DNA of 64,000 bases from a phage (GCA_024674815.1 GCA_024674815.1_4104.1), one strand, 5' to 3'; shown: positions 1,269 to 51,840, counted from the stretch's first letter. Notes: generated by a model from the letters alone, not told the origin. Numbers and translations are program-made.

Positions 1269-1365
1269 GTACTTTTTAAAAATAGTTTTCAGTACTAGCC
1301 ACCAGCAAACAATAGATACATTTATGCACCCTGTGGGCTGATTTGTTTCTATGCGTATATAATAG

Positions 1366-1397
1366 CAAAGGGACTGACCGGAGTCAATCCCTTTTTC
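1366..1397 (-). terminator. hairpin terminator (family with UUCG-type loop)
   Basis: GGGAUUGAC-UCCG-GUCAGUCCC, fully paired only in minus transcript (G-U wobble); short T-run. Confidence 0.45.
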
Positions 1398-5831: not shown

Positions 5832-5944
5832 GTACTTTCTACAAATACTTTTAAAATAGTTTTCAGTACTCAAACATTATACAATAGATACACTCCTGCA
5901 CCCTGTGGGCTAGTGAGCTATCTCTCAATGAATATATAATAGCA

Positions 5945-5975
5945 AACTGGCTGACCGAAGTCAACCACTTTTTCA
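5945..5975 (-). terminator. terminator hairpin with UUCG loop, TTGACT -35 embedded
   Basis: GGUUGAC-UUCG-GUCAGCC in minus transcript; TATTAT 17 nt downstream. Confidence 0.5.
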
Positions 5976-38652: not shown

Positions 38653-38687
38653 TTCGTTATCCTCATCAGTTGATGAAATAATTATAG

Positions 38688-38718
38688 CAAAAAGGGCCGA
38701 CCGAAGTCAACCCTTTTC
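38688..38718 (-). terminator. UUCG-loop terminator with embedded promoter -35
   Basis: GGGUUGAC-UUCG-GUCGGCCC + U-run; TTGAC in stem, TATAAT ~18 nt downstream. Confidence 0.5.
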
Positions 38719-38721
38719 TTG

Positions 38722-39843
38722 TTATTGTTTTACACCACCCCATTTTTCATAGATGGCAATAATTTTATCTATGTTGTTTGGTGTCGTAGTTTCAGTATAC
38801 CCATCCGGCATTTCACGTTTAGTTAAAATACCTTTTCCAAACAGTTTCTTGCATTCTTTTTCAGCTTGCTTACACTGTTCTACCGTTGGGAATAGATAAA
38901 AACATATTATTTCAACATTAAATACTGATTTACTATTTTGCTGGTAAACACGTTTCCCTTTTTGTTTTTCAATACCATATTTCAATGCAACGGGTAAACC
39001 ATTGTCTGAAATATTATTAATATAAGCATATTTCTGTGAAAGCCCAGCAGCAAGTGGATGTCCCTGACCCTTAAAAAAATTACTTGGTAGAATATCAAAC
39101 TCACCAAATTCAGGATCAATAATAGTTACTTTTGTTTTGTTATTAATATAATTAACTTTACTATAATCAAAATCAACATCAGTTCTTCTTTTTTTTGCTT
39201 CTTCAATGAATTGCTCTGTTGTTTTTTTTACGGTGCCACCACGCATTGGATGTCCACTACCACTCAAAAAATTACCAGGTGTAACTTCAAACTCACCAAA
39301 TTCAGGATCAATAATAGTTATTTTTGTATGATAATTAATATAATTAACTTTACTATAATCAAAATCAACATCAGTTCTTCTTTTTTTTGCTTCTTCAATG
39401 AATTGTTCAGTTGATGATGAGCGTGATTTTTTTTGTACCATTCTACCACGTGCAAAATGATTTATACCACTCAAAAAACTATTTGGTAGAATATCAAACT
39501 CACCAAATTCAGGATCAATAATAGTTATTTTCGTTTTAGCATTAATATAATTAACTTTACTATAATCAAAATCAATATCAGTTCTTCTTTCTTTCGCTAA
39601 AGAAATAAAGTGTTCTTTGGATTGTGTAAGTTTTTTTGATATTTTTTGTCTTCCACGCATAAGATGTCCACTACCACGTAGAAAACTATCTGGTGTAATA
39701 TCAAACTCACCAAATTCAGGATCAATAATAGTTACTTTTGTTTTGTTATTAATATAATTAACTTTACTATAATCAAAATCAACATCAGTTCTTCTTTTTT
39801 TTGCTTCTTCAATGAATTGTTCAGTTGTTTTTTTAGCACACAT
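38722..39843 (-). CDS. 4x ~65-aa repeat protein with C-terminal GIY-YIG/T5orf172-like region (373 aa)
   Basis: four tandem repeats ...FDYSKVNYIN-KTK-TIIDPEFGEF...; C-term assignment tentative. Confidence 0.5.
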   Translation of the reverse strand: MCAKKTTEQFIEEAKKRRTDVDFDYSKVNYINNKTKVTIIDPEFGEFDITPDSFLRGSGHLMRGRQKISKKLTQSKEHFISLAKERRTDIDFDYSKVNYINAKTKITIIDPEFGEFDILPNSFLSGINHFARGRMVQKKSRSSSTEQFIEEAKKRRTDVDFDYSKVNYINYHTKITIIDPEFGEFEVTPGNFLSGSGHPMRGGTVKKTTEQFIEEAKKRRTDVDFDYSKVNYINNKTKVTIIDPEFGEFDILPSNFFKGQGHPLAAGLSQKYAYINNISDNGLPVALKYGIEKQKGKRVYQQNSKSVFNVEIICFYLFPTVEQCKQAEKECKKLFGKGILTKREMPDGYTETTTPNNIDKIIAIYEKWGGVKQ

Positions 39844-40072
39844 TACTTAAAACTCCTTTCCAGTACTGAACCCGTCCAGCACCATTAATCTTAGCCTGAA
39901 TCTTATCTTTTTCAACAAGACCTTCTTTGTAATCGATGGAAGTATTATCGCACTTAATTACATCCAAGTCAAGTACTTCTTGTGTACTTAATGAAGTATT
40001 GTCTGCAATTTGTTGTAAAGTAATAATATCAGTACCGAAGAATTCTGCTAAACGTATAAAAGATAGTTTCAT
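39833..40072 (-). CDS. hypothetical protein (79 aa)
   Basis: ATG ORF. Confidence 0.5.
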   Translation of the reverse strand: MKLSFIRLAEFFGTDIITLQQIADNTSLSTQEVLDLDVIKCDNTSIDYKEGLVEKDKIQAKINGAGRVQYWKGVLSNVC

Positions 40073-40105
40073 GTATTACCTCTCGTTTCGATAAAATAAT
40101 TATAG

Positions 40106-40135
40106 CAAAAAGGGCTGACCGAAGTCAACCCTTTA
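40106..40135 (-). terminator. UUCG-loop terminator/promoter element
   Basis: conserved GGGCTGACCGAAGTCAACCC. Confidence 0.5.
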
Positions 40136-40137
40136 TG

Positions 40138-40497
40138 TTATTCTAATTCACTCATAGTAGTAATAGTTAAGCCCATTTCTTCTGCAATGTTGCATAACAG
40201 ACCAACTGCATTACGAAGAATATCAGTGTTGTCCACCGAGAATGATGAGTTTTCATTTACAGTTGAAGACTCAATGTAGTACTCAAAATAACGAGAAGTT
40301 GAACGCACAACTTTAACACCTTCATACTTCTGTAGTTCATAGTTGATACGCTCGATGAGTGAATCTTCCAGTACTCGATAGTCACCATTCATTCCACGTT
40401 TCCATCCATCAGCAGGACGGAAATAAAAAGTTTTTGTACGTTGAATTGTTGAGATTGTTAGTGGGTTGTATTCCGCGATTTCACTTAAAGATGCCAT
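40138..40497 (-). CDS. hypothetical protein (119 aa)
   Basis: ATG ORF; TTGACA-17-TATTAT promoter ~40515-40550. Confidence 0.55.
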   Translation of the reverse strand: MASLSEIAEYNPLTISTIQRTKTFYFRPADGWKRGMNGDYRVLEDSLIERINYELQKYEGVKVVRSTSRYFEYYIESSTVNENSSFSVDNTDILRNAVGLLCNIAEEMGLTITTMSELE

Positions 40498-40603
40498 GTT
40501 GTATTCCTCATTTGGTGATGTACATAATACAGAAAGATAGAACAGGTGTCAATGTTTATATCTCAAATATCCAAATACTTTGGTGTAGCACATACTACAT
40601 CAA

Positions 40604-40798
40604 CTAATCCTCGCTGAAGACAACAATAAGGAATGACACGAACAATGCCGCATAACAAGGAGCTATCTTCATGTACCACGGTACTTCATAATACCATGTA
40701 CCCAATTCATCCCACGAAAAGAGTATACTCAAACCGAAGCCGATTAGCGATAGTACAATAAAAGAAATCCAGAAACGCTTTGAATATACTAATAACAT
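40604..40798 (-). CDS. small membrane protein (64 aa)
   Basis: two hydrophobic segments. Confidence 0.45.
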   Translation of the reverse strand: MLLVYSKRFWISFIVLSLIGFGLSILFSWDELGTWYYEVPWYMKIAPCYAALFVSFLIVVFSED

Positions 40799-40836
40799 GT
40801 TATGTTCCTTTGTGTAACCGAAGTCAATCCTTTCCT

Positions 40837-41352
40837 TTAATAATTATTCATTTCATCTTTGATTTGTTCTTCAATTTCGTCGAACATATCAGTACTAGAT
40901 TCGTTCTTACTACTTACGTTCTGCATATCTTTAACGTACTGTGGACATTCAACATCAGTAAACTTATACCACGTAGGCTTCATCTGGAGCTTCTCAATCA
41001 AACGATCACGAGACATTTTAATCTCTGACTCCGATGGTACATAGTCATTACAAAACTCAGCAGGGAAGCCGCTAATGTCGTTTACTTCAGTGTTTTGAAT
41101 CTTCATACCACGACGCAGACATTCGTTGACAATATCAATATGACGCTTCTGTAAGTACAGTAACTTGTCGTAGAAAAATGTTACATGACCTGAACCTAAC
41201 AGATAAGTACTGTTAATTTTGAAATCACGTACACGCTTACGTGCTTGAACGTGTTTTTGTACAGCACCAAATACACGTGGGAGTTCACGATATTCAGCCA
41301 TCAGATGTTGGTCAGCAAGTTCTTTAACGTGTACTAAGTTAATGCGTGTCAT
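40837..41352 (-). CDS. denV: endonuclease V, pyrimidine-dimer DNA glycosylase (T4 DenV homolog) with C-terminal extension
   Basis: N-terminal ~130 aa recalled as near-colinear with T4 DenV (MTRINL...[21 protein letters not shown]...). Confidence 0.8.
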
Positions 41353-41387
41353 GTATTCATCCTCTCGTTTCGATGAAATGATTATAG

Positions 41388-41420
41388 CAAAAAGGGCCGA
41401 CTGAAGTCAACCCTTTTTTT
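41388..41420 (-). terminator. UUCG-like terminator/promoter element
   Basis: conserved hairpin; TTGACT-18-TATAAT upstream of denV. Confidence 0.5.
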
Positions 41421-41506
41421 CTTTCAATCAAACATAGTCTACCAGAATGTACCATGCGATGGTGATTAGAACAAAGAATCATACACTTCTTCATTGTTTA
41501 ATCCAT

Positions 41507-41776
41507 TTATTCAACAATCCCCAACTTCACAATCTCATACCCGTCCAGATAGCCGTAGGAACACTCAGGTGTTTCATAAGATGAACCATCATAGATGCCC
41601 TGGCATTGGCTTTTGGAATTCTCAAGCAATCGTTGCAGTACTGATACGTCATCAAGAACGTAATACAAGTTAGCATATAGGTCCGTTACAATACAGTACT
41701 CCAACATGTCAAATGTATCAATCGAAATTTCAACCTTAGCAAATCGTTTCTTTTCTTTATTATACAGTGCGTACAT
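41507..41776 (-). CDS. hypothetical protein (89 aa)
   Basis: internal ATG abutting upstream stop; longer track ORF overlaps neighbour. Confidence 0.4.
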   Translation of the reverse strand: MYALYNKEKKRFAKVEISIDTFDMLEYCIVTDLYANLYYVLDDVSVLQRLLENSKSQCQGIYDGSSYETPECSYGYLDGYEIVKLGIVE

Positions 41777-41777
41777 A

Positions 41778-42149
41778 TTAATCTCCATAATCAAGTTTAA
41801 CCAACTTACCACACAGATACCCAAAGTTTTCTGGCTTCGCATCTGAATAGAAGAAGTCAGTACTTAACTCTGAATTCAATGCTAAAGCACACAACTCCAC
41901 CCAAAATAAACCCCTATGTTGTACTGGATTACAACGTTTCTGTACAGTTACTAGTCCAGTACATGATGACCACAAAGTAGGACAGATACCACTACCACTA
42001 CGCTTGGAGTACTGCATCCACGAACGTTCATTGAGGTTAGCTATCATTCCTGTCAAGAATAACTTCCAGCTTTTGAAGGTTGGAATCTTGATAGCATAAT
42101 CCCCAATAAGGATAACAGTTCGTGTTGCACCTTTCAAATCTATATTCAT
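41778..42149 (-). CDS. hypothetical protein (123 aa)
   Basis: first ATG; track start is GTG. Confidence 0.4.
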   Translation of the reverse strand: MNIDLKGATRTVILIGDYAIKIPTFKSWKLFLTGMIANLNERSWMQYSKRSGSGICPTLWSSCTGLVTVQKRCNPVQHRGLFWVELCALALNSELSTDFFYSDAKPENFGYLCGKLVKLDYGD

Positions 42150-42157
42150 ATTTTTAA

Positions 42158-42409
42158 TTAGAAGAACACAAACCAAGTCCAGAATAAATTCCACACTACA
42201 AATAAAGACATAGTGGTTTTATGTACAATATCAGCAGTACTGGTCCATCCTCCACCGTGTCCTATTCCATTTATGAATAGAACTAAGAACAAGATACCAT
42301 TTACTACAATAGTACATAGTAAGTACACAAACACATTCCATGCAAGTTCAGGAGATACTAACGTAAATGGTAAAACAATTAGTAGTATTAGAACTAATAA
42401 AATTTTCAT
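42158..42409 (-). CDS. small membrane protein (83 aa)
   Basis: two hydrophobic helices. Confidence 0.5.
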   Translation of the reverse strand: MKILLVLILLIVLPFTLVSPELAWNVFVYLLCTIVVNGILFLVLFINGIGHGGGWTSTADIVHKTTMSLFVVWNLFWTWFVFF

Positions 42410-42625
42410 TTATCGCCTCACTTAATTAACGTGACAATTAGTACGAATCAGATTCCCAGTACTCGATTGCTTCTTTCAGCAATTCTTTAGCACGTTGTTT
42501 TGCAATGCGAGCGGGTAACAGATATGTGTACATTAACTGACGCTTCACTTCATTCAGTGAAAGCTGTTCATGGTACAGTGCATCCATCAGTCGATTACGA
42601 GTACGTAGTTTCATATAAGTTATCC

Positions 42626-43180
42626 TTATTTCAAAGAATCATAGTAAGCAGTGTCAAAGATTGGAGTCATAATAACATAGTCAATACGGTCAATGTAAGT
42701 TGAACTCCACATTTCTGGTTTGTCATAAAATTGACGCTCGCGTTCATTCATACGAGTCAGTACTTCTTCCAATTTACTACGTGAAGCCATCAATGTATTA
42801 CGCGATCCATAAGTGAAGTACTCAGTCCATTGATATTCATATTCAGTACTGATAGATTGAATAGTACCATCTTTGAAATGAGCTAATGCATAACCTTTCT
42901 CTACAAAGTTATCAGGTGGAAGAACACCATCTGGATTAGTTTTCAATGCTTTTTCTAACTTTTCTTTAATTTCAGTTAACGTGCATACTGAACGAATGTT
43001 CTTCAGGTTTGATACTTGAAAATCACTGTACTTTCCAAAGAAAAATACACGCCAATCTTTAGGTTCATTATCAGATACGGTAACATCAGGATGATGGGCG
43101 AGTAAACGAAGAAGGCCAGCTTTGTGACCGTTAATGTAGATTTCATGGATGTGGTTAGCAGTTTTCTTAAAAGTAATCAT
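42626..43180 (-). CDS. hypothetical protein (184 aa)
   Basis: ATG ORF. Confidence 0.6.
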   Translation of the reverse strand: MITFKKTANHIHEIYINGHKAGLLRLLAHHPDVTVSDNEPKDWRVFFFGKYSDFQVSNLKNIRSVCTLTEIKEKLEKALKTNPDGVLPPDNFVEKGYALAHFKDGTIQSISTEYEYQWTEYFTYGSRNTLMASRSKLEEVLTRMNERERQFYDKPEMWSSTYIDRIDYVIMTPIFDTAYYDSLK

Positions 43181-43256
43181 GGTAGTTCCTCGATTGTAGG
43201 GATGAGAAGTTCATCCCCTTGATAAGCATTATACAGTACTGAATGTGTTTGTCAAC

Positions 43257-43637
43257 TCAAAATAAATTCATTTCATGTGCGTATTGTGGTTCAAGATAAG
43301 ATAAGTTTTTGAAACTGTCTTTCAATTCCGCATCATCTACGTACACAGTACCAGGTACATTCCCCATAGTGAAGCCAACCCAAACAGTCATGTTTCCAGT
43401 TCCTAAGCGGGGCATTGATAGCGTCCCGTCAGGTGAAACATCAAACGCTACACTAAAGTCATCCGTTACAACTTCCGACCCATTTTCCAGAATAATACAA
43501 CCACGTTCTTTAAGCTTCTGAATGTGGATAGCAGCCTCTACAGCACGTTTAAAGTTATAATAAGACTCTTTATCCTCGAACATTGATTGTTTAACCAGAC
43601 GCTTGTTTAGCTCGGTTACTTTGTGCATTTGACGCAT
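43257..43637 (-). CDS. hypothetical protein (126 aa)
   Basis: ATG overlapping upstream stop; track start is GTG. Confidence 0.5.
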   Translation of the reverse strand: MRQMHKVTELNKRLVKQSMFEDKESYYNFKRAVEAAIHIQKLKERGCIILENGSEVVTDDFSVAFDVSPDGTLSMPRLGTGNMTVWVGFTMGNVPGTVYVDDAELKDSFKNLSYLEPQYAHEMNLF

Positions 43638-43891
43638 TACTTCAACTCCCACAGTTGTAGAATTTCATAAGAGCCTGGTGGTGCTGGATTGATAATCTCA
43701 GGGTATTCAGTACTGTTAGGATTACCACCAGCATTGAACTCAGCAAGTAATAATTCGAGTTCATTCCTATCATGTACAACAAACACGCAATATCCAGTTC
43801 CTTCTTCAAGAACTGTAGTTGACCCCGCACAATCCCATACGGTATCAATACATAATAATTCTTTAGTGTTTTTATTACGCAACGCAAACAT
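43637..43891 (-). CDS. hypothetical protein (84 aa)
   Basis: ATG ORF. Confidence 0.45.
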   Translation of the reverse strand: MFALRNKNTKELLCIDTVWDCAGSTTVLEEGTGYCVFVVHDRNELELLLAEFNAGGNPNSTEYPEIINPAPPGSYEILQLWELK

Positions 43892-43900
43892 ATATGTCTC

Positions 43901-44245
43901 CTATCGATTCGGCATATTCTTTCGTAGTCGCAAGAGAAATTCAACCACTGACCATGTTGTAATGAAGGCTATATAAGTTGCAAGGAATCCAGTAAGAATA
44001 AATGCAACCAGCGTACTACCATTTGGGGAATCAGTTTTAATGCCGATGACACCATCGGCTACAGTGAAACATGTAGCCATTAATGTGTAACCTACGTACA
44101 ACACAAAGAAAAACTCATTCTCCATTGAAGGATAGAAACGGTTAAACACTTTATAAAATTTAAAGTACAGTAGGATTATACCAACAAAGGCATAGAATGT
44201 AAACAGTGTTGTTATAATATATGAGATTAGGTTCAAATTATACAT
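43901..44245 (-). CDS. small membrane protein, family member (114 aa)
   Basis: C-term LRKNMPNR; same family as 35377-37816 array. Confidence 0.5.
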   Translation of the reverse strand: MYNLNLISYIITTLFTFYAFVGIILLYFKFYKVFNRFYPSMENEFFFVLYVGYTLMATCFTVADGVIGIKTDSPNGSTLVAFILTGFLATYIAFITTWSVVEFLLRLRKNMPNR

Positions 44246-44246
44246 A

Positions 44247-44588
44247 TCAACGCTCCGGTAGATTATCACGTAATGTTTTAATTCGATGATACATTTTCAT
44301 ACCAATATTACCAAAGATACCATATCCAAGTACTAAAATGTATGCAATAAGCATAGTAATAATTACTATAGTGCCAAAACTATAATGTACACTACTGATA
44401 CCCATTGTAGTTTCAACGATTATTTGAGAAACTGAAAGAATCAAAAGTACAACTACAATTGGATGATTTGGGTACATTCGGTTGAACAACGTTTTGTACT
44501 TAAAGAAGCACAGTACTCCACCGAATAAGAAGTACACAATGTAAATGCAAGCAACAGCATAGGCAAACATGTTAGTGTAATAAATCAT
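44247..44588 (-). CDS. small membrane protein, family member (113 aa)
   Basis: C-term LRDNLPER. Confidence 0.5.
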   Translation of the reverse strand: MIYYTNMFAYAVACIYIVYFLFGGVLCFFKYKTLFNRMYPNHPIVVVLLILSVSQIIVETTMGISSVHYSFGTIVIITMLIAYILVLGYGIFGNIGMKMYHRIKTLRDNLPER

Positions 44589-44597
44589 TACCAATCC

Positions 44598-44936
44598 TTA
44601 CTTTTCAGGGATATTAGAACGCCATATATCAATGCGATGAACTAGTCCAAAGAACAACCATACTGGAACGGCAGCTATCATAACAACAAATGAAAACCCA
44701 GTCAACACCGATACCAGATTTAATTCATCAGTACTATACCCACATATCAGTACTTCTAATATTCCCCACGTACATGCACAAAACATCAAGAATGAAATTG
44801 GGGCATCATAGTAGATACGTTCATATAAAGTAGTATATCGGAAGAATGCAATAATATAGCAAAACATATAATACACCCAAACCAAAGATACTACATAAAA
44901 TGATACTTTGTTTATTAATTCAAAATATTGTTCCAT
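44598..44936 (-). CDS. small membrane protein, family member (112 aa)
   Basis: C-term WRSNIPEK. Confidence 0.55.
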   Translation of the reverse strand: MEQYFELINKVSFYVVSLVWVYYMFCYIIAFFRYTTLYERIYYDAPISFLMFCACTWGILEVLICGYSTDELNLVSVLTGFSFVVMIAAVPVWLFFGLVHRIDIWRSNIPEK

Positions 44937-44938
44937 TT

Positions 44939-45220
44939 TTACCCCAATATATATTCAGAGAGTAATGTATTAGCTTCATCTTTGTTCTTAAGGTAATACA
45001 TGTAATATAGATTCGGTTCACCATCTTTAGTACTCAAATCAAAGTACTTTAAACTATGTACTTTCATAGTAAAAACAAATAATGACTTAAAACCAATCTC
45101 ACCGTACTTAATAAACAGTTCATCCAAATGAATGTAACTTTTTGATTTGGATAATTCTTTAACGTCTGCATCAATTTCAGATAAAAGATGCTTACCTATT
45201 AAGTTTTCAAATGAACGCAT
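44939..45220 (-). CDS. hypothetical protein (93 aa)
   Basis: ATG ORF. Confidence 0.5.
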   Translation of the reverse strand: MRSFENLIGKHLLSEIDADVKELSKSKSYIHLDELFIKYGEIGFKSLFVFTMKVHSLKYFDLSTKDGEPNLYYMYYLKNKDEANTLLSEYILG

Positions 45221-45281
45221 GATTTTATCCTTTACCGCAATTTTTATGGTTTATTAAGAATACACCAGAACATCAGTTCTG

Positions 45282-45923
45282 TCAATAAAAAACTGGATCT
45301 TCTTCAGTAATTGGTATTTCTCTACGCACATCACACGAAAGAGGATCAGTAATGAATACATTCCCATCTTTATCCATCATTACATTACTTGAATGAATGT
45401 CTGGTACAAAACGCCCGTGAAACTCTTTCATGATGTTAGCAGCGACCGTCGCAATAGCAATCTCTTCAGAATTACCACGCATATCATTCACTGAAGTAGC
45501 GTACTGACCAGCATGTGCATAAGAATATAAATCTCCAATTTTAGTACTAACAAAGTCATCATAATTATTTTTTTGTTTAATTATAGGATAGTACTTGTCC
45601 ATCTCATACCATCCAAAGTTTCCTTGTTCGTTGGCACTGTAGATCACTGGAAGAAACTTGGTTCCTGCGTTTTCAATGCAGTACTTTGCATAAGCACGAA
45701 AACCATCCCAGCGTGAAGTGGTTACTTTAAATGCACGTCCAGGATAGTTTTTATGTTCAACTACTACAGAGTACATCCCCATTCCAAGAAAAGTAAGTCC
45801 AGCAGCTTTAACTTGTGGAAAGATTACGCGTTCAGCATAAGGAATATCAAACTCCATCGCACAACGAGTTTTTGATGGACGCAAAATGTCAATTAAAGTT
45901 TTGAATATGTCTTGCTTAGTCAT
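45282..45923 (-). CDS. possible kinase-like fold protein (213 aa)
   Basis: DIHSSNVMMDKDGNVFITD resembles kinase/APH catalytic loop; ATG with GAGGA SD. Confidence 0.4.
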   Translation of the reverse strand: MTKQDIFKTLIDILRPSKTRCAMEFDIPYAERVIFPQVKAAGLTFLGMGMYSVVVEHKNYPGRAFKVTTSRWDGFRAYAKYCIENAGTKFLPVIYSANEQGNFGWYEMDKYYPIIKQKNNYDDFVSTKIGDLYSYAHAGQYATSVNDMRGNSEEIAIATVAANIMKEFHGRFVPDIHSSNVMMDKDGNVFITDPLSCDVRREIPITEEDPVFY

Positions 45924-45960
45924 TACTTTATCCTCTGTAGTTAATACCAACATCATAACA

Positions 45961-45988
45961 AAAAAGGCTGACCGAAGTCAACCCTTTT
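45961..45988 (-). terminator. UUCG-loop terminator/promoter element
   Basis: GGCTGACCGAAGTCAACC. Confidence 0.5.
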
Positions 45989-45992
45989 ATTA

Positions 45993-46412
45993 TCATTTAC
46001 AGTTTTCTATAACTATTGCACGTTTTAGTATTTTACTTTCATAAACATACTTAAGATGACCTTCTTCACGAATACGATTGAACACATATCCTAGTTTATC
46101 TTTTAGTACTGAAGCGGTATCAATGTCAAGATTAACTTCAACCCCTCCTGTTAATTTAACTTTATATGTAAATCTAAAAGCATCACCAGATTCAACCAAT
46201 GGGACTACTTGTTCATACGTATTCAACATAACTCGTTCATCATTAACTAAATTATATATTACTATATCACAAGTTTTTACCCCAATTTCCTCTAATGTAG
46301 GAGCATTATCTACTATAACATCTTTTACTGTATTTGCAACCTGTTTAGCATCTGCTGCATATACATTAAAACTAAAAAGTACTAAAATAATACTTAAAAA
46401 AATCTTTTTCAT
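45993..46412 (-). CDS. secreted protein (139 aa)
   Basis: signal peptide MKKIFLSIILVLFSFNVYA. Confidence 0.6.
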   Translation of the reverse strand: MKKIFLSIILVLFSFNVYAADAKQVANTVKDVIVDNAPTLEEIGVKTCDIVIYNLVNDERVMLNTYEQVVPLVESGDAFRFTYKVKLTGGVEVNLDIDTASVLKDKLGYVFNRIREEGHLKYVYESKILKRAIVIENCK

Positions 46413-46421
46413 TATATATCC

Positions 46422-46745
46422 TTATTTTATTTTACACGTCATATCGGGTTGTGCTTGTTTATTATTTTTAAACGGATTAGGTTTTTTATCTTTCTTTTTA
46501 TCTTTTAAAGGTTTTTTGTCTTCTTTTTTATCTTTATCTTTGTCTTTTTTATTTTTATCAGGTTCAGAGGGAGTATTACATTGTGCTGGGGGTTGATTAG
46601 TTGGAGTACAGCTATTGTCTGATGGGAGTATTACTTCTTTACAATTGTAAAATAGTAAACTTTTATTTGTGGTTAAATTATGAAAACGATAGTTACGTTC
46701 ATTATTATAATAAATTGTTTTAGTACTTTCAATGCCATTGCACAT
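46422..46745 (-). CDS. Cys-containing protein with K/D-rich tail (107 aa)
   Basis: KDKDKDKKEDKK low-complexity tail. Confidence 0.45.
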   Translation of the reverse strand: MCNGIESTKTIYYNNERNYRFHNLTTNKSLLFYNCKEVILPSDNSCTPTNQPPAQCNTPSEPDKNKKDKDKDKKEDKKPLKDKKKDKKPNPFKNNKQAQPDMTCKIK

Positions 46746-46755
46746 TGCTACTGAA

Positions 46756-47007
46756 TCACCGGAACTCTTTTTCTATTCCCATTACATCAGTCTTACGCTC
46801 AGATAGTATACCTGAAGTATATGAATCTTTGTTGTCAAACGCATTAAATCCAATAGTTCTGTCGGTGTCGTGTATTATTCCTTTTGTGTATGAGGTAGTA
46901 TAGAACTCCCCATTTCTGAAATCCTGCCTTGCTACGGAGCAATGATAATCTGCACCATAAGCAGTACTGGAAAATAATACAATTCCAAATATAATATATT
47001 TTTTCAT
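46756..47007 (-). CDS. secreted small protein (83 aa)
   Basis: internal ATG gives signal peptide MKKYIIFGIVLFSSTAYG; longer ORF overlaps terminator. Confidence 0.5.
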   Translation of the reverse strand: MKKYIIFGIVLFSSTAYGADYHCSVARQDFRNGEFYTTSYTKGIIHDTDRTIGFNAFDNKDSYTSGILSERKTDVMGIEKEFR

Positions 47008-47043
47008 TGTAATCCCTCTTCTTAATTCCTCTTTTGTATTTAC

Positions 47044-47073
47044 AAAAAAAGGCTGACCGAAGTCAACCTTTTG
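47044..47073 (-). terminator. UUCG-loop terminator
   Basis: GGCTGACCGAAGTCAACC. Confidence 0.5.
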
Positions 47074-47078
47074 TTTTA

Positions 47079-48356
47079 TCATTTACCGTATTTGCTCATG
47101 ATGTCCTTTTCCCAAGGAGTTACATTTCCATTTTCGTAATCACGGAAAGAGTCATCAAGTGTAGTCAATGCATAATCATATGCCTCACCGGATTCAACAT
47201 CAATATCAACAGCACCATTCACTACATCAGTCCACGCTTTTTGTAGTTTACGAGCGTTGTTACCAACTTTATCTTTAATCCAACTAAGATTTCGGTTTAT
47301 ACTCTTCTTATCAGCACCAGCTTTTTCACCAACATCTGCAACCCATTGCATTAATTTCTGTAGTTCGTTATGGGATTTTTCAGTCATTTGGCGGTCTTGT
47401 GACAGTTCAGCTTCCATGTCATCAATTTCTTCGTCTGAATGAACATCGTTCTGTTCTACTGCACCTTCTTCATCATCACGCATCAGATAACCATCTCGTG
47501 TAACCTTCTCACCATGATCAGCTTCATACTTTTTCATAGTATTGAATGCAGCATCCATTGCAGTTACAAAACGACTCTTTTCACCTTGTACATAAGATTT
47601 AAGTGCATCGTTAACTGCATCAGATACTAATTTAATCTTATCGTCTTTACCTTCCAGACGGTTTTCTAACTTAGCTAGTACATTCTTAACTTTTTGAGCA
47701 TTAGCACGGTCTTCTTTACCAATACTATCAAATGTTTTAAGTACGCTTTCAAGACTTACTTCCTCTTGTGCAGGCACATCACCTTGTTGCGTACCTTCAA
47801 GTGCACGCATTATAGTACTGAATACTTCAGTTGGTTCAGTACTGGTATTTCCACTCATTGCATCAAGCACAGCTTGTGCTTTGACTTTTAATTCTTCTTT
47901 AGGTACAGATTGCAATTCTTTCACAATACCTTGGATAAGTTGTGGTTTATTAGCAAAAATCTTACCTAACTTATCCGACAGTTCTTTGACAGGGTTAACC
48001 GCCTTTGGTGCTTCTTGTTTTGGTTCTTCTTTAGCAGGAGCAGATTTTTCTTTTTCTTCACGTTCCATATCAGCTAGGCGTTGTTTTTGTGTAGCATTAA
48101 GAAGTCCCAATGAATTAACATAACGTAGCTTTTCTAGCTCAGTCATGTTCTCAGTACTCTTAACTTCACCTGCTTCTGCGTTTGCTTTACCAGCTAGACC
48201 AGTTCCTTGGTTACGTGATCCACGTGAACCTTGACCTGCTTGATAACTATTTGGACGGCGGTTGCGTTCACTCCATTTATCAGAGTGACCAGCCATGTTA
48301 CCACCATTTTTATCAGTAAAATTACTTGGCATTTGATTTCTCTCCATAGATTTCAT
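47079..48356 (-). CDS. large Lys/Glu-rich protein with LxSLGLL motif (425 aa), late-expressed
   Basis: TATAAATA late-type promoter upstream; alternative starts at M4/M9. Confidence 0.55.
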   Translation of the reverse strand: MKSMERNQMPSNFTDKNGGNMAGHSDKWSERNRRPNSYQAGQGSRGSRNQGTGLAGKANAEAGEVKSTENMTELEKLRYVNSLGLLNATQKQRLADMEREEKEKSAPAKEEPKQEAPKAVNPVKELSDKLGKIFANKPQLIQGIVKELQSVPKEELKVKAQAVLDAMSGNTSTEPTEVFSTIMRALEGTQQGDVPAQEEVSLESVLKTFDSIGKEDRANAQKVKNVLAKLENRLEGKDDKIKLVSDAVNDALKSYVQGEKSRFVTAMDAAFNTMKKYEADHGEKVTRDGYLMRDDEEGAVEQNDVHSDEEIDDMEAELSQDRQMTEKSHNELQKLMQWVADVGEKAGADKKSINRNLSWIKDKVGNNARKLQKAWTDVVNGAVDIDVESGEAYDYALTTLDDSFRDYENGNVTPWEKDIMSKYGK

Positions 48357-48372
48357 TTTTTCTCTATGTCTA

Positions 48373-48380
48373 TATTTATA
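48373..48380 (-). promoter_or_regulatory. T4-type late promoter TATAAATA
   Basis: exact TATAAATA on minus strand ~17 nt upstream of ATG. Confidence 0.45.
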
Positions 48381-48387
48381 GTATAAA

Positions 48388-48418
48388 GAAAAGGCTGACC
48401 GAAGTCAACCTTATTTTG
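48388..48418 (-). terminator. UUCG-loop terminator
   Basis: GGCTGACCGAAGTCAACC. Confidence 0.5.
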
Positions 48419-48570
48419 TTACTTAGATTGTTCTTGTGCAGGTGGATTTACTTTTTGATCCACTACATAGAATACACCACCAACCAGTACTGCGGCGATG
48501 AGTGCAGCAACTACAAATTTCAAACCTTGCATATATGATACCTCAGTTATATTGAGAATTTATGATACAA

Positions 48571-48600
48571 CAAAGGGCTGACCTTAGTCAACCCCTTTTT
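48571..48600 (-). terminator. terminator hairpin (variant loop)
   Basis: GGGCTGACCttaGTCAACCCC. Confidence 0.45.
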
Positions 48601-48601
48601 A

Positions 48602-48985
48602 TTACTTCTTGAACTTATGTTTTTCACTTTCGATTGCATTCACGATTTCATCATGAATTTTACGAAGATTGTGAGTTTTCTTTAGAGATTCATGTAATGC
48701 ACGGAATGCAGAGTGTACAGTTGCTTTAAAGTGCTCTTTAGGAGTTACTTTAAGTTTCTCGATAATATCACGTACATAGATTGGGTGATCCTCAAACACA
48801 CGATTAAGCTCATGACCTAGTGATTCTAGGCTAAATGCTTTTTCACGGGATGGACGATCATGTGCAAGACTTTGGTCTGGTTTTAGAAGACCTAGTGAAT
48901 CTAGATACTTGTGCTTATGTGCATTGTCTAGACCAGAAATATCAACATCATGTGATGGATCTTTCTTATTCCATTTATCAACCAT
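48602..48985 (-). CDS. hypothetical protein with LDSLGLL motif (127 aa), late-expressed
   Basis: shares YxxSLGLL motif with 47079-48356; TATAAATA upstream. Confidence 0.55.
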   Translation of the reverse strand: MVDKWNKKDPSHDVDISGLDNAHKHKYLDSLGLLKPDQSLAHDRPSREKAFSLESLGHELNRVFEDHPIYVRDIIEKLKVTPKEHFKATVHSAFRALHESLKKTHNLRKIHDEIVNAIESEKHKFKK

Positions 48986-49021
48986 TTTTATAACTCCTAT
49001 AAGAGATAAATTTTACTATAA

Positions 49022-49029
49022 TATTTATA
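49022..49029 (-). promoter_or_regulatory. T4-type late promoter TATAAATA
   Basis: exact TATAAATA on minus strand, AGGAG SD before ATG. Confidence 0.45.
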
Positions 49030-49100
49030 GTTCCGTTGTCATTTATATCGAATGACATAAAACATTATATCATAATAAGAATGGTTGTCCCAAAGTTAAA

Positions 49101-49544
49101 TTAGTACTGATCAAGTTCAGATGTAAAAATGAATGCATCCATGTCTTCCAACGTAAGTTTTAAGTCTGGTACATACTTAAGAATAACGCACTCTGGCTTC
49201 TTAATAGCAGCTTGATAAGCAGCAATGGCAAGGGATTCCAACTGCTGTGCTGTATAATTTTTACGTTCTGCATTAAAAACTTTGTTTTTGATATCACCAC
49301 CTGGGAGTTTTTCAAACTCACGCATAACTGCGGTAAGAACATCGTCAGCAGTGTTACTATATACCCATTGGGGTAATTGCATTACATTATAAATCACACC
49401 ACTATCATCCATCAAAGAGATCCATTTGTACCCATCACTAGCACTGAACAAACGCCCTTTTAGTACTGTGTTATTAGTTAAATTTACAAATGCAAAAATA
49501 TCTTGTTCGTTAAGTTCAATACTATTAACATTTACCCAACTCAT
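49101..49544 (-). CDS. hypothetical protein (147 aa)
   Basis: first ATG; track start is TTG. Confidence 0.5.
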   Translation of the reverse strand: MSWVNVNSIELNEQDIFAFVNLTNNTVLKGRLFSASDGYKWISLMDDSGVIYNVMQLPQWVYSNTADDVLTAVMREFEKLPGGDIKNKVFNAERKNYTAQQLESLAIAAYQAAIKKPECVILKYVPDLKLTLEDMDAFIFTSELDQY

Positions 49545-49557
49545 TACGATTCCCCAT

Positions 49558-50130
49558 TCATAAATCACGAACAATATTCATTAAACACAATTTAGGTTTT
49601 ATAGCATTCAACACCCATATGCATTCTTTGTAAGTAGCTATTATATCATCTAAATGCTCAGTTACAATGCTTTCTTGAAAATATTCTTCATCATTGAGCT
49701 TTGCTAATTTAGTAACATCACACGTAGGCACTATAGGTCTGGATTTTACACCCATTCCATTATTGATATTAGTGAAATGTACAAAATGGTACTTCACAAC
49801 ACCTTTATCTAGATTTATTATACATGACAAATTTTCCAACTCAGTTAGTTTTTTATTACAAGTAACATTAATGAAACCAGCATTATAGGCTCTATAATCA
49901 TCTACTGATATCTCAAAATCATTACGTTCAAATATAAGTGAAATGAGTTGGTCCAGTGGTTTGACATTCATATATTTTAATGAATTTACGTATGATACTT
50001 CAATCTTAGATGAAATTATCTTTTTACTAAGTGCAGTTAATTCTTTGTTAGATTTAACTGTTAAAACAATAGGTTTAAACCTAGAACTTTTGTTCTTTTT
50101 TGATACTTTAAAACGACCTTTACGATTCAT
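49558..50130 (-). CDS. hypothetical protein (190 aa)
   Basis: ATG with GAGGA SD; track start is GTG. Confidence 0.55.
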   Translation of the reverse strand: MNRKGRFKVSKKNKSSRFKPIVLTVKSNKELTALSKKIISSKIEVSYVNSLKYMNVKPLDQLISLIFERNDFEISVDDYRAYNAGFINVTCNKKLTELENLSCIINLDKGVVKYHFVHFTNINNGMGVKSRPIVPTCDVTKLAKLNDEEYFQESIVTEHLDDIIATYKECIWVLNAIKPKLCLMNIVRDL

Positions 50131-50137
50131 AATTTCC

Positions 50138-50359
50138 TCAATTAATAATTTCACATTTAACGTGTGGTTTATATAGCATAATTAACCCATTTTTAAGTAC
50201 AATGATTGTTGCTCTGTTAGTAATCGAAACGTTTTTAATTATACTTTTTTTATATGTTTCAACATATTTCTCTTCATAATTTATACATTTAACATATTCT
50301 TTTTGTTTAGCACTTACAACAGTACTGAATAATATCAGTACAAGTACTATATATTTCAT
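50138..50359 (-). CDS. secreted small protein (73 aa)
   Basis: signal peptide MKYIVLVLILFSTVVSA. Confidence 0.5.
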   Translation of the reverse strand: MKYIVLVLILFSTVVSAKQKEYVKCINYEEKYVETYKKSIIKNVSITNRATIIVLKNGLIMLYKPHVKCEIIN

Positions 50360-50411
50360 TACTATACCTTATAAACAAAAAGGAATTCATTTAAGAATTC
50401 CTTTTTTACAA

Positions 50412-50705
50412 TCATTTATCTAACATACCATTGTGCAAACGTTCATATACTTCAGTTCGACGCAAATTCACAATATCTTCTGCGTATTTTAATGTAAATG
50501 CCCATGCTTTTGGATGTACGTTAAGCTTCATACGAATTCGATTTTTCATCAACTCTCCACTTAAACGAATAAATTCGTGTACACCACGACTACCGTATTC
50601 AGTAATTAAATCATTAATGTACATATCACGAAGAGTTTCATCTGCACATTCTTTAACCATTTCTACGTCAGCGACGATGCTTTCATTAACTGAAGTACTG
50701 ATCAT
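50412..50705 (-). CDS. hypothetical protein (97 aa)
   Basis: ATG ORF. Confidence 0.5.
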   Translation of the reverse strand: MISTSVNESIVADVEMVKECADETLRDMYINDLITEYGSRGVHEFIRLSGELMKNRIRMKLNVHPKAWAFTLKYAEDIVNLRRTEVYERLHNGMLDK

Positions 50706-50717
50706 TTTTAATTTACC

Positions 50718-50984
50718 TTATTTAAATTCGACTGTAATTTTATCACCTTCAACTACGAACTTACAGTTGTAGCGACGTGCCATATCCATGTACATATGCT
50801 CAGAGTACCAAGGAACATCAATAATCGGATGCTCTGCATATTGTAGAACTTCACGGTCGCCCACTGTAGTAATGATGAAAGGAATGTTCATCTCTCGTAA
50901 AAACAGTTCAGCACCAGGAGAACGATTAATAAATTCAGTATCATTACGTAAAGTAAATCCATTATATTGTAATTTAAGCTTCAT
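50718..50984 (-). CDS. hypothetical protein (88 aa)
   Basis: ATG ORF. Confidence 0.5.
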   Translation of the reverse strand: MKLKLQYNGFTLRNDTEFINRSPGAELFLREMNIPFIITTVGDREVLQYAEHPIIDVPWYSEHMYMDMARRYNCKFVVEGDKITVEFK

Positions 50985-50998
50985 ATGTTATCCTCTAT

Positions 50999-51343
50999 TC
51001 AATACCATTCTTTAAAACCATTAAGTTCGGCTACGTGAGTGATTATAACACATATAACATTCAGGTCAAGTATAATTTGATCATAATTTAATTTTATACG
51101 ATCATCATTATATGCTCTAAAAACTACATCGTAATCAAAGAAATTTGCGTTTTCATCATTCATTGAAACGATTCGGTATCTACGTCTTCCATCTGTATTG
51201 AATATAGTTAAACACTGTTGAAACTTTCTCATTAACTGTTTAGATAGGATATTATAATATTCAATATCTTTTTGTGAATTACGTGGGTCATCAGGAAAAT
51301 AGAATGAAACAAATTTCTTTAATTCTATTTGAGTTTTATCCAT
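50999..51343 (-). CDS. hypothetical protein (114 aa)
   Basis: ATG ORF. Confidence 0.5.
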   Translation of the reverse strand: MDKTQIELKKFVSFYFPDDPRNSQKDIEYYNILSKQLMRKFQQCLTIFNTDGRRRYRIVSMNDENANFFDYDVVFRAYNDDRIKLNYDQIILDLNVICVIITHVAELNGFKEWY

Positions 51344-51776
51344 ATATTACCTCATGTGTTTCTCTTTTACTTTGTCGGAACTCATCCTTTGCTTCCTTAA
51401 CTGACATGATACGAACTAATTTAGCACTACCGCAATAGTACTGAACCTGATTACGACCAATGTCTACATGGTGGTCTGGAACTTCATATACAGATATAGC
51501 AAACCCAGCACGATGCAATTTACCCAAGTCCATAGTGAAGAATCTGAACAAATCTTTCAAACTTTGACAGCCAAATACCCATCCACTTTTGATTGAATAG
51601 ATCCCATCCTCAGTTGGTTCAGGTTGGAATTGAGAAGGTGTAGTCATAAGCAAACGGTCAAATCCATTTTTAGTACTGTATCTAGTTGAATACCGTGCAA
51701 ACGGACCTACAGTTCGTGCAGGATCTAAGTTAGGTTCAATGTAACTAAATTTAAGTTCAAAACGATATACATACAT
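51336..51776 (-). CDS. hypothetical protein (146 aa)
   Basis: ATG ORF; terminator/promoter element upstream. Confidence 0.55.
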   Translation of the reverse strand: MYVYRFELKFSYIEPNLDPARTVGPFARYSTRYSTKNGFDRLLMTTPSQFQPEPTEDGIYSIKSGWVFGCQSLKDLFRFFTMDLGKLHRAGFAISVYEVPDHHVDIGRNQVQYYCGSAKLVRIMSVKEAKDEFRQSKRETHEVIYG

Positions 51777-51812
51777 AATTAAAATCCTCTAATTTATTAA
51801 GAGAATTATAAC

Positions 51813-51840
51813 AAAAAAGGCTGACCGAAGTCAACCTTTG
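51813..51840 (-). terminator. UUCG-loop terminator/promoter element
   Basis: GGCTGACCGAAGTCAACC. Confidence 0.5.

Follow-up and report, generated by a model that had tools for sequence, protein, structure and literature searches.

The promoter-early stem-loops (PeSLs) of T4-like phages are the closest described systems to the element reported here. In RB49 and phi1, lacZ fusions showed that whole PeSL sequences act as promoters and that a PeSL stem-loop acts as a terminator; of the five subclasses described, one has its stem-loop over the -35 (Arbiol et al. 2010, PMC2839356). Mini-circles formed from PeSLs, and indels bounded by them, have been documented. For the PeSLs of nt-1 and KVP40, the consensus is a stem of the form A3-4 G3-loop-C3 T3-4 with a -35 of TTGYVH (Comeau et al. 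2014, PMC4122927). In the supplement on Pectobacterium phage CBB, the sequence GGGTTGACTTCGGTCAGCCCTTT appears as the terminators Torf515, Torf518 and Torf520 (-16.8 kcal/mol, ARNold-based; Buttimer et al. 2017, PMC5259590). The element described below is a regulatory cassette of the known PeSL kind, and the idea is not new.

Our analysis covered a window of 64,000 nt, the whole stretch of phage DNA analysed, which is 97-99% identical to Asteriusvirus genomes. By this sequence comparison its source is an Asteriusvirus jumbo coliphage of the 121Q/PBECO4/phAPEC6 group. The original prediction held that at least ten near-identical copies of a hairpin element fit the gene orientation. We found exactly ten: the pattern CTGACCGAAGTCAACC with up to two mismatches matched ten times, on the plus strand only (0.01 expected by chance), and the looser pattern TTGACNNNNGTCRRCC with one mismatch returned the same ten sites and nothing else in the window (0.52 expected). 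All copies share one orientation and each lies in an intergenic gap between minus-strand genes (10/10). The CTGACCGAAGTCAACC positions fall 6-9 nt inside the starts first predicted, which included the A-run. Eight copies lie in 38688-51840 and the remaining two at 1374 and 5951. Their surroundings are arrays of small minus-strand hypothetical genes, and the RCC1-like paralogue array (~16-34 kb of the window) contains none of the ten. A second cassette family has 21 copies across 1-16 kb. An Rfam covariance-model search of the window gave no family at its gathering score.

Read along the minus strand, the element runs A-run, GGGTTGAC, UUCG loop, GUCAGCCC, U-run, TGn, TATAAT, a leader of ~22 nt, GAGG and ATG. 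The signal takes up ~45 bases, the whole regulatory cassette ~65-70 nt. The ten copies are as follows.

1359..1394, minus strand: copy 1 (match at 1374); stem 1367-1394, 12 bp including an A-U extension (one A-U pair more than the others have), loop UCCG, -19.5 kcal/mol; -35 TTGACT 1387-1382, 17-nt spacer, TG + TATTAT 1364-1359; 275-nt leader containing a second promoter.
5936..5967, minus strand: copy 2 (5951); stem 5948-5967, outer pair altered on both sides from G-C to U-A, -14.6 kcal/mol; -35 5964-5959, 17-nt spacer, TG + TATTAT 5941-5936; leader of 196 nt that shares homology with the copy 1 leader.
38681..38718, minus strand: copy 3 (38697); stem 38689-38718, 13 bp with two U.G pairs, beginning 3 nt past the upstream stop codon, -18.0 kcal/mol; -35 38710-38705, 18-nt spacer, TG + TATAAT 38686-38681; predicted promoter of a 256-aa AAA-like ORF (37882-38652).
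40099..40134, minus strand: copy 4 (40115); stem 40109-40134, -18.3 kcal/mol; -35 40128-40123, 18-nt spacer, TG + TATAAT 40104-40099; predicted promoter of a 79-aa ORF (39833-40072).
41381..41418, minus strand: copy 5 (41397); stem 41389-41418, loop UUCA, two U.G pairs, -17.4 kcal/mol; -35 41410-41405, 18-nt spacer, TG + TATAAT 41386-41381; predicted promoter of denV (pyrimidine-dimer glycosylase, 40837-41352).
45952..45988, minus strand: copy 6 (45968); stem 45961-45988, -15.4 kcal/mol; -35 45981-45976, 18-nt spacer, TG + TATGAT 45957-45952; predicted promoter of a protein-kinase homologue (SD-backed ATG 45923).
47039..47072, minus strand: copy 7 (47053); stem 47047-47072, 7-U run, -15.2 kcal/mol; -35 present, -10 poor (TGTAAA, or TGTAAATA).
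48380..48412, minus strand: copy 8 (48395); stem 48391-48412, -12.4 kcal/mol; -35 48408-48403, 17-nt spacer, TATACT 48385-48380, overlapped by the T4-type late motif TATAAATA; a 425-aa virion structural gene lies downstream.
48562..48597, minus strand: copy 9 (48578); stem 48572-48597, loop UAAG, -18.3 kcal/mol; -35 48591-48586, 18-nt spacer, TATCAT 48567-48562; predicted promoter of a 37-aa ORF.
51805..51839, minus strand: copy 10 (51821); stem 51816-51839, -14.1 kcal/mol; -35 51834-51829, 18-nt spacer, TG + TATAAT 51810-51805; predicted promoter of a 146-aa ORF (51336-51776).

The gene context of these copies is regular. The upstream stop codon precedes the stem by 3-11 nt in seven of the ten and lies inside the -35 in one more, copy 10, where the TGA within TTGACT ends the upstream ORF. 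An ATG preceded by a Shine-Dalgarno (SD) sequence follows the stem at 34-39 nt in 8/10 copies, counting for copy 6 the SD-backed ATG at 45923 and not the first in-frame ATG. Genes after two copies carry a virion structural annotation, and late expression would be expected of such genes.

In the sense (minus-strand) RNA the ten copies fold into hairpins of 8-13 bp (-12.4 to -19.5 kcal/mol), with z-scores of -3.7 to -6.4 against dinucleotide shuffles, whereas the plus-strand RNA carries a C.A mismatch in the stem and folds at -6.5 to -16.1 kcal/mol. This bears out the predicted strand asymmetry. The UUCG tetraloop that had been assigned to the family is found in seven copies and is replaced by UCCG, UUCA and UAAG in one copy each. 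A U-rich tract follows the G+C-rich hairpin at once, after a stop codon, as in an intrinsic terminator. The U-run is 4-7 nt long and is followed by GCU, and given this short run and the GC after it termination may be partial. A simple terminator scan flagged only two of the eight copies in its range (48395 and 51821).

The same bases have the makings of a promoter. In all ten copies, and not just in several as had first been proposed, the 5′ arm of the hairpin reads TTGACT. The -10 hexamer is an exact TATAAT in four; five others have a 5/6 match and 47053 has the poor TGTAAA. The spacer between -35 and -10 measures 17-18 nt in 9/10 copies, mostly 18 nt as opposed to the optimal 17, and the TG of an extended -10 occurs in seven. 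One could argue that the element is a terminator only, with TTGACT and TATAAT arising by coincidence in an A+T-rich genome. This is how the CBB annotation has it, the sequence standing among the terminators and not among the promoter entries in the supplement passages retrieved, and promoter-like hexamer pairs in the region as a whole are indeed at chance level (95 found against 90 expected). Coincidence would nevertheless have to explain TTGACT in every copy, a -10 of at least 5/6 match at 17-18 nt in nine and the TG in seven, as well as SD and ATG at a fixed 34-39 nt. The 18-nt core, moreover, has 66 distinct copies across phage contigs in IMG/VR, and 59 of these hold a -10-like hexamer at 16-19 nt. 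A terminator, besides, does not need its stem to spell TTGAC. We regard this explanation as very improbable.

The opposite view, that these are strong early promoters only, alike through recent duplication or gene conversion and with an incidental, non-terminating hairpin and U-run, would account for the near-consensus promoter features. It would also account for the leader that orthologous and paralogous copies share down to the ribosome-binding site, as copying of the whole cassette predicts. It does not account for the 3′ arm, which lies in the spacer, where sigma-70 needs no specific sequence, and is always complementary to the -35. The -35 bases are invariant and their partners on the 3′ arm vary between A and G only, exchanging U-A for U.G. 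Because the -35 pairs vary on this arm alone, promoter function would be what constrains the 5′ arm and RNA pairing what constrains the 3′ arm. When 19 copies and variants are aligned, pairing holds in 97.6% of cells, and four outer pairs are altered on both sides; such double changes occur both within the window (1374, 5951) and across phages. With the -35 invariant, its partners limited to A and G and the outer pairs covarying, promoter and RNA hairpin both look selected at the sequence level. Copy 47053, in addition, retains its hairpin and 7-U run despite a decayed -10, and the window contains a second class of promoters that lacks such a hairpin. A promoter without terminator function is very improbable on these grounds. 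As its -10 is poor, 47053 itself probably just terminates, or else serves as a late-type start.

An unbiased IMG/VR scan with the pattern A3-N3-TTGAC-N12-T4-N3-TATAAT yielded 76 distinct sequences, ten of which have a perfect 8-bp stem with a 4-nt loop (1.0 expected; maximum of 5 in 1000 shuffles). The outer triplets of these ten covary (GGG/CCC, CCC/GGG, GAC/GTC, TAC/GTA, CGC/GCG). This bears on a further explanation, in which TTGAC-N4-GTCAA over the -35 would be a DNA operator bound by a dimeric phage or host regulator that shuts early promoters. Operators typically look like this, with a palindrome centred on the -35 that recurs at many promoters of a single class of genes. The commonest form, GTCAG, is however an imperfect palindrome as DNA, yet forms a U.G pair in the sense RNA, as in 15 of the 19 aligned sequences at that position. 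In other phages the outer GGG/CCC becomes CCC/GGG or GAC/GTC with pairing kept, as would suit an RNA structure but not a fixed protein contact; the A-run and U-run at either side and the UNCG loops are features of terminators. The core sequence occurs in phages of very different hosts, one of them Gram-positive, and these would need a common regulator. An operator appears very improbable to us.

We consider it probable, from sequence features, that the cassette is an intrinsic terminator of the upstream gene fused with a sigma-70-type promoter of the downstream gene. Every prediction that this original proposal makes at the sequence level is borne out, namely position, hairpin with U-run, promoter features and pairing-preserving variation. 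From the anatomy, folding, position, conservation and covariation, all of which are directly seen, we infer termination and initiation to proceed as follows. Each cassette occupies the space between two co-oriented genes. RNA polymerase arriving from the upstream gene would transcribe the A-run, the G+C-clamped hairpin with its C(UUCG)G tetraloop and the U-run. Intrinsic termination would come a few bases beyond the stop codon, so that the upstream mRNA would end in a stable 3′ hairpin. In double-stranded DNA the same bases would act as a strong sigma-70-type promoter, with the A-run and GGG at the position of a proximal UP element, the hairpin 5′ arm as -35 TTGACT, the U-run within the 17-18 nt spacer and then TGn-TATAAT. 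The new transcript would start ~7 nt after the -10, so that it would lack the hairpin and carry a leader of ~22 nt with the GAGG ribosome-binding site. In the arrays of small early or accessory ORFs, the outcome would be a chain of genes that are insulated from one another and have a promoter each. A literature search found no RNA-end data for any Asteriusvirus.

As a side effect of such a terminator-promoter fusion, scattered near-identical cassettes might serve as homology patches for the exchange or loss of gene cassettes, as for PeSLs. The region varies between relatives through several indels and replacements, and the boundaries can be placed directly. Four of the 18 distinct ones lie within 28 nt of a hairpin centre (38717, 41428, 47072 and 48558; 11-28 nt), so that four of the eight local copies have a mosaic or indel boundary. 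Homology to 121Q and PBECO4 stops at 38717 at copy 3, an indel boundary lies at 41428 at copy 5, and at copy 7, position 47072 is exactly where identity to 121Q, PBECO4 and EC22.5-2 falls from 98-99% to 77%. In phage UB, the 37-aa ORF together with copy 48395 is swapped for a 257-aa gene, and homology stops just 3′ of the copy 9 stem. Copies 48578 and 48395 are 183 bp apart. The slot beside 38697 is filled differently in the phages 121Q, PBECO4 and phAPEC6, by genes with an endonuclease or exonuclease annotation. Several of the variable cassettes carry an endonuclease annotation, and endonuclease genes insert between genes in any case.

Recombination might even be the main role, the elements being portable homology patches for swapping gene cassettes, often with endonuclease genes. 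The transcription signals would then make an inserted cassette self-sufficient, and this reading is compatible with the terminator-promoter explanation and does not exclude it. The four breakpoints, the replacement in UB and the variable nuclease-annotated genes speak for it, as do the documented PeSL mini-circles and PeSL-bounded indels and the occurrence of this cassette between unrelated flanks in six or more lineages of phages. The breakpoint excess, however, has P ~5e-4 against a uniform null and P ~0.06-0.12, which is not significant, once breakpoints are limited to gene junctions, and no event here has elements at both ends. Identity across lineages could also be convergence, since little freedom remains once the -35 is TTGAC, the tetraloop is the most stable one, C(UUCG)G, and the stem has a G/C clamp. 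The breakpoints at four of the eight local copies are suggestive of cassette exchange but not decisive, and a primary role in recombination is possible though unlikely. A wider and more doubtful proposal is that the cassette of A-run, GGGTTGAC-UUCG-GUCAGCCC, U-run and TGn-TATAAT, often with a ATCGAAAC-type leader, is one horizontally mobile module among unrelated virulent phages, a joint or landing pad for gene-cassette exchange that frequently carries free-standing endonuclease genes. Its carriers are Asteriusvirus, Mimasvirus, RaK2-like jumbo phages, KVP40-like and Aeromonas T4-likes, Vequintavirinae and the Gram-positive Brochothrix phage A9. If true, such mobility would exceed the within-lineage shuffling described for PeSLs.

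Among known elements, the C(UUCG)G intercistronic hairpins of T4 were reportedly described by Tuerk et al. in 1988 as RNA stability elements. They share with our element a very stable UUCG tetraloop closed by C-G and a place in phage gene gaps, but are not described as carrying a promoter -35. Bidirectional intrinsic terminators likewise have an A-run and a T-run that give a U-run after the hairpin on either strand; here, however, the plus strand has the C.A mismatch and no plus-strand genes converge on the sites, and the A-run is more likely to act as UP-like promoter DNA. The CBB sequence is identical and has one copy upstream of denV, as copy 41397 here, but in the supplement parts retrieved it figures only as a terminator, and its dual nature seems not to have been noted by the annotators.

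The likeness to the RB49/phi1 PeSLs (PMC2839356) goes further. Both have a near-consensus sigma-70-type promoter with an A/T-rich stretch upstream (here the A-run directly before the -35), a stable stem-loop in or beside the promoter with G.U pairs in the stem, and a position between the stop codon of a small gene and the next SD and ATG. Both are repeated many times, here in variable regions where small genes of unknown function abound. The RB49/phi1 PeSLs are also found near indels between close relatives, which the four boundaries in the present window may parallel. In RB49/phi1, however, Gn-loop-Cn stems predominate, and the usual place of the stem is over the -10 or between it and the -35, whereas the present element has the -35 as 5′ arm in every copy, a UNCG-type loop, an 18-nt spacer and an extended -10. 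Promoter, terminator and mini-circle activities were measured in RB49/phi1 only. The nt-1/KVP40-type PeSLs belong to another phage family and another host. The element fits their stem and -35 consensus, and AAAAAGGGTTGACTACGGTCAGCCCTTT is present in an intergenic gap of KVP40; a 42-nt query found 5-9 matching places in each of the KVP40-group genomes, with 81-90% identity. Judging from the stated consensus and from the KVP40 sequence, the register would be that of the published nt-1 PeSLs. PeSLs were defined in T4-like myoviruses, and because Asteriusvirus is not classified in Straboviridae the PeSL family concept needs extending, though KVP40 has the same sequence.

A search of the window with CTGACCGAAGTCAACC, allowing up to two mismatches, returned ten sites, every one of them on the plus strand, where 0.01 would be expected by chance, and a looser pattern search gave the identical ten sites and no extra one. 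The ten copies of the original prediction are thereby confirmed, including two (1374 and 5951) that lie beyond the 38688-51840 range assigned to the family.

Copies of the element, by core start (plus-strand match to CTGACCGAAGTCAACC; the element itself is read on the minus strand)
1374, plus: copy 1
5951, plus: copy 2
38697, plus: copy 3
40115, plus: copy 4
41397, plus: copy 5
45968, plus: copy 6
47053, plus: copy 7
48395, plus: copy 8
48578, plus: copy 9
51821, plus: copy 10

Between 38,000 and 52,000 the window is 97-99% identical to the Asteriusvirus jumbo coliphages E9.1, phAPEC6, slurp01, 121Q, PBECO4 and UB (~350 kb apiece). By GC skew and ORF map the genes of 1-16 kb and 34-64 kb are on the minus strand, and the plus-strand block at ~16-34 kb corresponds to an array of RCC1-like paralogues in 121Q. 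Read on the minus strand, a typical copy consists of a stop codon, 3-11 nt, AAAAA, GGGTTGAC, TTCG, GTCAGCCC, TTTTT, GC, TATAAT, ~7 nt and a ~22-nt leader with GAGG, followed by ATG. The hexamer TTGACT, expected within the stem of several copies, was found in all ten, where it forms the 5′ arm and the first loop base. Of the TATAAT proposed some 17-18 nt downstream, four copies have the exact hexamer and five a 5/6 match, these nine with spacers of 17-18 nt, and copy 47053 has a poor TGTAAA; in seven copies a TG, as in an extended -10, stands before the hexamer. The A-run and GGG occupy what we take to be the proximal UP-element subsite of E. coli promoters (Estrem et al.). UP-like elements ahead of RpoD-type promoters were described in phage CBB by its authors (PMC5259590). 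The distance from stem to ATG is 34-39 nt in eight copies, and the leaders of copies 1374 and 5951 are longer (275 and 196 nt, respectively).

At copy 51821 the stop codon of the upstream ORF (51831-52076; gp191 in 121Q) is the TGA within the -35 TTGACT (51829-51834), so that these bases serve at once in the reading frame, the hairpin arm and the promoter. At copy 45968 we took the ATG at 45923, preceded by the Shine-Dalgarno (SD) sequence AGAGGA, as the downstream start. The longest ORF of this protein-kinase homologue, as annotated in 121Q and PBECO4, starts at 45956, inside the -10 region of the copy; the ATG at 45923 agrees with the shorter annotation in phAPEC6 and, of the two, is the one that fits the predicted transcript. 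At copy 48395 the weak -10 coincides in part with a T4-type late-promoter motif without mismatch, TATAAATA (48380-48390, minus strand), upstream of a 425-aa gene annotated as 'virion structural protein' in relatives, and TGTAAATA occupies the -10 position of copy 47053 (47035-47045, minus strand). Early-type and late-type starts may share one terminator at these two copies; the late-promoter motif by itself carries no significance in A+T-rich DNA such as the window (30-41% G+C in 2-kb windows).

The built-in terminator scan recovered two of the eight copies within 38688-51840, since the scan assigns the A-U extension to the stem and is left with too few T, and folding was therefore used as the basis instead. 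The sense RNAs form stems of 8-13 bp, counting the A-U extension, with energies of -12.4 to -19.5 kcal/mol (z -3.7 to -6.4), whereas the antisense RNAs carry a C.A mismatch opposite the sense U.G and reach only -6.5 to -16.1 kcal/mol, in agreement with the suggestion that only the minus-strand transcript pairs fully. C(UUCG)G, closing pair and loop together, is a classic extra-stable tetraloop; UCCG, UUCA and UAAG occur as loop variants among the copies. Copy 1374 has an additional A-U pair inserted in both arms, copy 5951 has an outer G-C pair replaced by U-A through changes in both arms, and copies 38697 and 41397 show A to G facing U. We aligned the ten copies with those of KVP40, Aeromonas avDM6, Cronobacter CR3 and GAP32 and with five metagenomic variants; 97.6% of cells in these 19 sequences are paired, the five variants having been chosen because they pair. 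Both partners have changed in four of the outer pairs, and the pairs with TTGAC bases vary on the 3′ side only (U.G to U-A and the reverse), as expected if sigma-70 contact fixes the 5′ arm and RNA pairing the 3′ arm.

An unbiased scan of IMG/VR, with A3, TTGAC, T4 and TATAAT fixed and the stem left free, returned 76 distinct sequences. In ten of these the arms pair perfectly over 8 bp around a 4-nt loop in the same register, against 1.0 expected when the 3′ arms are dealt among the sequences (maximum of 5 in 1000 shuffles), and their outer triplets include GGG/CCC, CCC/GGG, GAC/GTC, TAC/GTA and CGC/GCG. That the element is a promoter only, with the hairpin a by-product of promoter copying, is quite unlikely in view of the paired changes in the window, the alignment and the IMG/VR scan. 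A role as terminator only is highly improbable given that the promoter half persists, a -10-like hexamer standing at 16-19 nt in 59 of 66 distinct IMG/VR copies of GGTTGACTTCGGTCRRCC. Copy 47053 presents the converse case, with a decayed -10 and an intact hairpin and 7-U run. Both halves, promoter and hairpin, look to be under selection, and an operator acting at the DNA level we consider very unlikely. As judged from its sequence, the element is probably a dual-use terminator and promoter, which upholds the original interpretation: RNA polymerase would stop in the U-run, and sigma-70 holoenzyme would initiate ~7 nt beyond the -10.

Three further candidates were rejected. A promoter of the N4 hairpin type, read by a phage RNA polymerase, does not fit a sequence that is a textbook sigma-70 promoter with extended -10. 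A host origin or REP-like element was dismissed because a search of 5,426 complete E. coli genomes with the 42-nt element gave no match at E<=1, and a MITE-like mobile element because no terminal repeats exist apart from the hairpin and every copy is placed alike with respect to the neighbouring stop and start codons. An Rfam scan of the whole window gave no match to any family.

The 42-nt version of the element has matches in 315 phage records. In the six matched phages that we inspected the element is intergenic, with a gene downstream and unrelated upstream flanks.

Phages matched in the 42-nt search
Asteriusvirus genomes: 7-11 places apiece
RaK2-like Klebsiella phages: up to 14 places
GAP32 and CBB: matched
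Erwinia and Salmonella jumbo phages: matched
KVP40, nt-1 and related Vibrio phages: 5-9 places, 81-90% identity
Aeromonas T4-like phages and the Vequintavirinae member CR3: matched

One of two readings of this shared sequence in unrelated phages is convergence, as the constraints leave very little freedom. With the -35 TTGAC obliged to serve as 5′ arm, the 3′ arm becomes GTCA(A/G); the closing base is supplied by the C of TTGAC, and the most stable tetraloop, C(UUCG)G, begins with the T of TTGACT. A G/C clamp and A/U runs complete both terminator and UP-like tract. IMG/VR variants with other clamps and loops indicate that independent solutions exist. The other reading, transfer between lineages, is rather unlikely as a general mechanism; in its favor, several lineages have common leader bases that the constraints do not explain, for example ATCGAAACGA after the -10 in copies 40115 and 41397, KVP40, CR3 and several jumbo contigs. 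If transfer rather than convergence were responsible, the element would point to a common means of exchanging genes among virulent phages of unrelated lineages. Brochothrix phage A9 (loci L145 and L149; 127,065 bp; Gram-positive host) has two copies of GGGGTTGACTTCGGTCAGCCCTTTTGTTATTAT with the -35-in-stem design of the window and a 17-nt spacer, either a striking convergence or a distant transfer.

Comparison of 34-56 kb of the window with six relatives yielded 18 distinct homology or indel boundaries, four of them 11-28 nt from a hairpin centre.

Boundaries near copies of the element (window positions)
38717: edge of a slot whose gene content differs among the window, 121Q, PBECO4 and phAPEC6
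41428: near the hairpin centre
47072: identity to 121Q, PBECO4 and EC22.5-2 falls from 98-99% to 77%
48558: UB homology spans the stem of copy 48578, followed by a 257-aa gene

In UB the 257-aa gene takes the place of a 37-aa ORF and copy 48395. The excess of breakpoints at elements has P ~5e-4 under a uniform null and P 0.06-0.12 when boundaries are placed at gene junctions generally; the association is lost under the latter, and recombination is therefore not claimed as shown. The positions are consistent with shuffling of the type ascribed to PeSLs, the promoter-early stem-loop cassettes of T4-like phages, and a role in recombination, additional to the dual function and not exclusive of it, is a tentative possibility. 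The slot immediately upstream of copy 38697 (38722-39843; with counterparts in L001-L004 and L006) varies in gene content from relative to relative.

Gene content of the slot at copy 38697
Window: 373-aa ORF
121Q: 93-aa ORF and 487-aa 'endonuclease'
PBECO4: 60-aa ORF and 379-aa 'endonuclease'
phAPEC6 and slurp01: 628-aa 'exonuclease ABC C subunit'

The 3′ part of the 373-aa ORF (38722-39167) is common to the window and phAPEC6. Pfam found no nuclease or endonuclease domain in the 373-aa ORF, so that the label 'homing endonuclease slot' depends on the annotations of relatives. The ORF at 47079-48356 ('virion structural protein') shows internal length changes of ~250-300 bp against relatives at 47389-47442 and 47770-47792 (52 bp in the window vs 310 bp in 121Q and PBECO4), and at the 3′ end its identity to the relatives is only 77%; by this comparison it is a hypervariable structural gene between two elements.

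The small-gene arrays contain other repeats. A second, more abundant intergenic cassette occurs in 21 copies at 500-15100 on the minus strand.

Examples of the 21-copy cassette
9299-9396, minus
6347-6444, minus
13722-13824, minus

Its order is AAAAAGTACTTGCA, ~17 nt, (G)TATAAT, GTTTTACATCGAG, a hairpin of GGGGAA...TTCCCC type, SD and ATG. The hairpin covaries (-8 to -16 kcal/mol), lies in the predicted 5′ UTR and is without a U-run; the cassette looks like a promoter with a stem-loop that would stabilise the 5′ end or act in regulation, and is similar to the Gn-loop-Cn PeSLs of RB49/phi1. Copies 1374 and 5951 begin a ~215-nt repeat (1100-1420 and 5680-5995, minus strand; 79% identical) that contains the hairpin-promoter, conserved AGCCCACAGGGTGCA, TGTATCTATTGT and AGTACTGAAAACTATTTT, and a second promoter of the 21-copy family with a GGGG..CCCC hairpin ahead of the gene. 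The motif (A/G)CCCA(C/T)AGGGTG also follows the same hairpin-promoter in phage contigs L123, L140 and L139 and recurs at 3659, 12226 and 14164 (repeat family D9); candidate roles for the motif are leader RNA, processing site and protein-binding site. At 14535-14670 about nine or more imperfect 8-nt tandem units of TCTAGCCG or TCCAGCCA type (family D5) lie in a small-gene array and are probably a coding repeat.

A complete gene boundary is held in ~70 nt (terminator, UP-like tract, -35, spacer, extended -10, leader and RBS), and using the same bases twice would be how a giant phage compacts it. Such elements offer ready-made transcription-unit boundaries for annotating largely 'hypothetical' genomes, favoring for example the shorter kinase start, and, for phage engineering, an insulated promoter part of small size. 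Their architecture is that published as PeSL, a small intergenic cassette in which a strong sigma-70-type promoter is joined to a stem-loop that ends transcription from upstream, which is abundant in hyperplastic regions of T4-like genomes and has five subclasses by stem-loop position, -35 overlap among them (PMC2839356). In RB49/phi1 a PeSL stem-loop lowered lacZ read-through to much the same extent as rrnB T1 did, and whole PeSLs were promoters so strong that most clones gained -35 or -10 mutations (PMC2839356). The published stem consensus for nt-1/KVP40 is A3-4 G3-loop-C3 T3-4 with a -35 of TTGYVH (PMC4122927), which fits the window element. The identical sequence is listed in passages of the CBB supplement as terminators Torf515, Torf518 and Torf520 (-16.8 kcal/mol) and is absent from the promoter entries in those passages (PMC5259590). 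Our literature search found neither a PeSL or dual-element description nor a transcriptome for Asteriusvirus or RaK2-like phages. Already known are the PeSL kind, the listing of the sequence as a terminator in the related phage CBB, and its presence in KVP40, where PeSLs have been described; our analysis would carry the PeSL concept beyond T4-like phages into the jumbo phages of the RaK2/121Q group, where the sequence was apparently annotated as terminator only.
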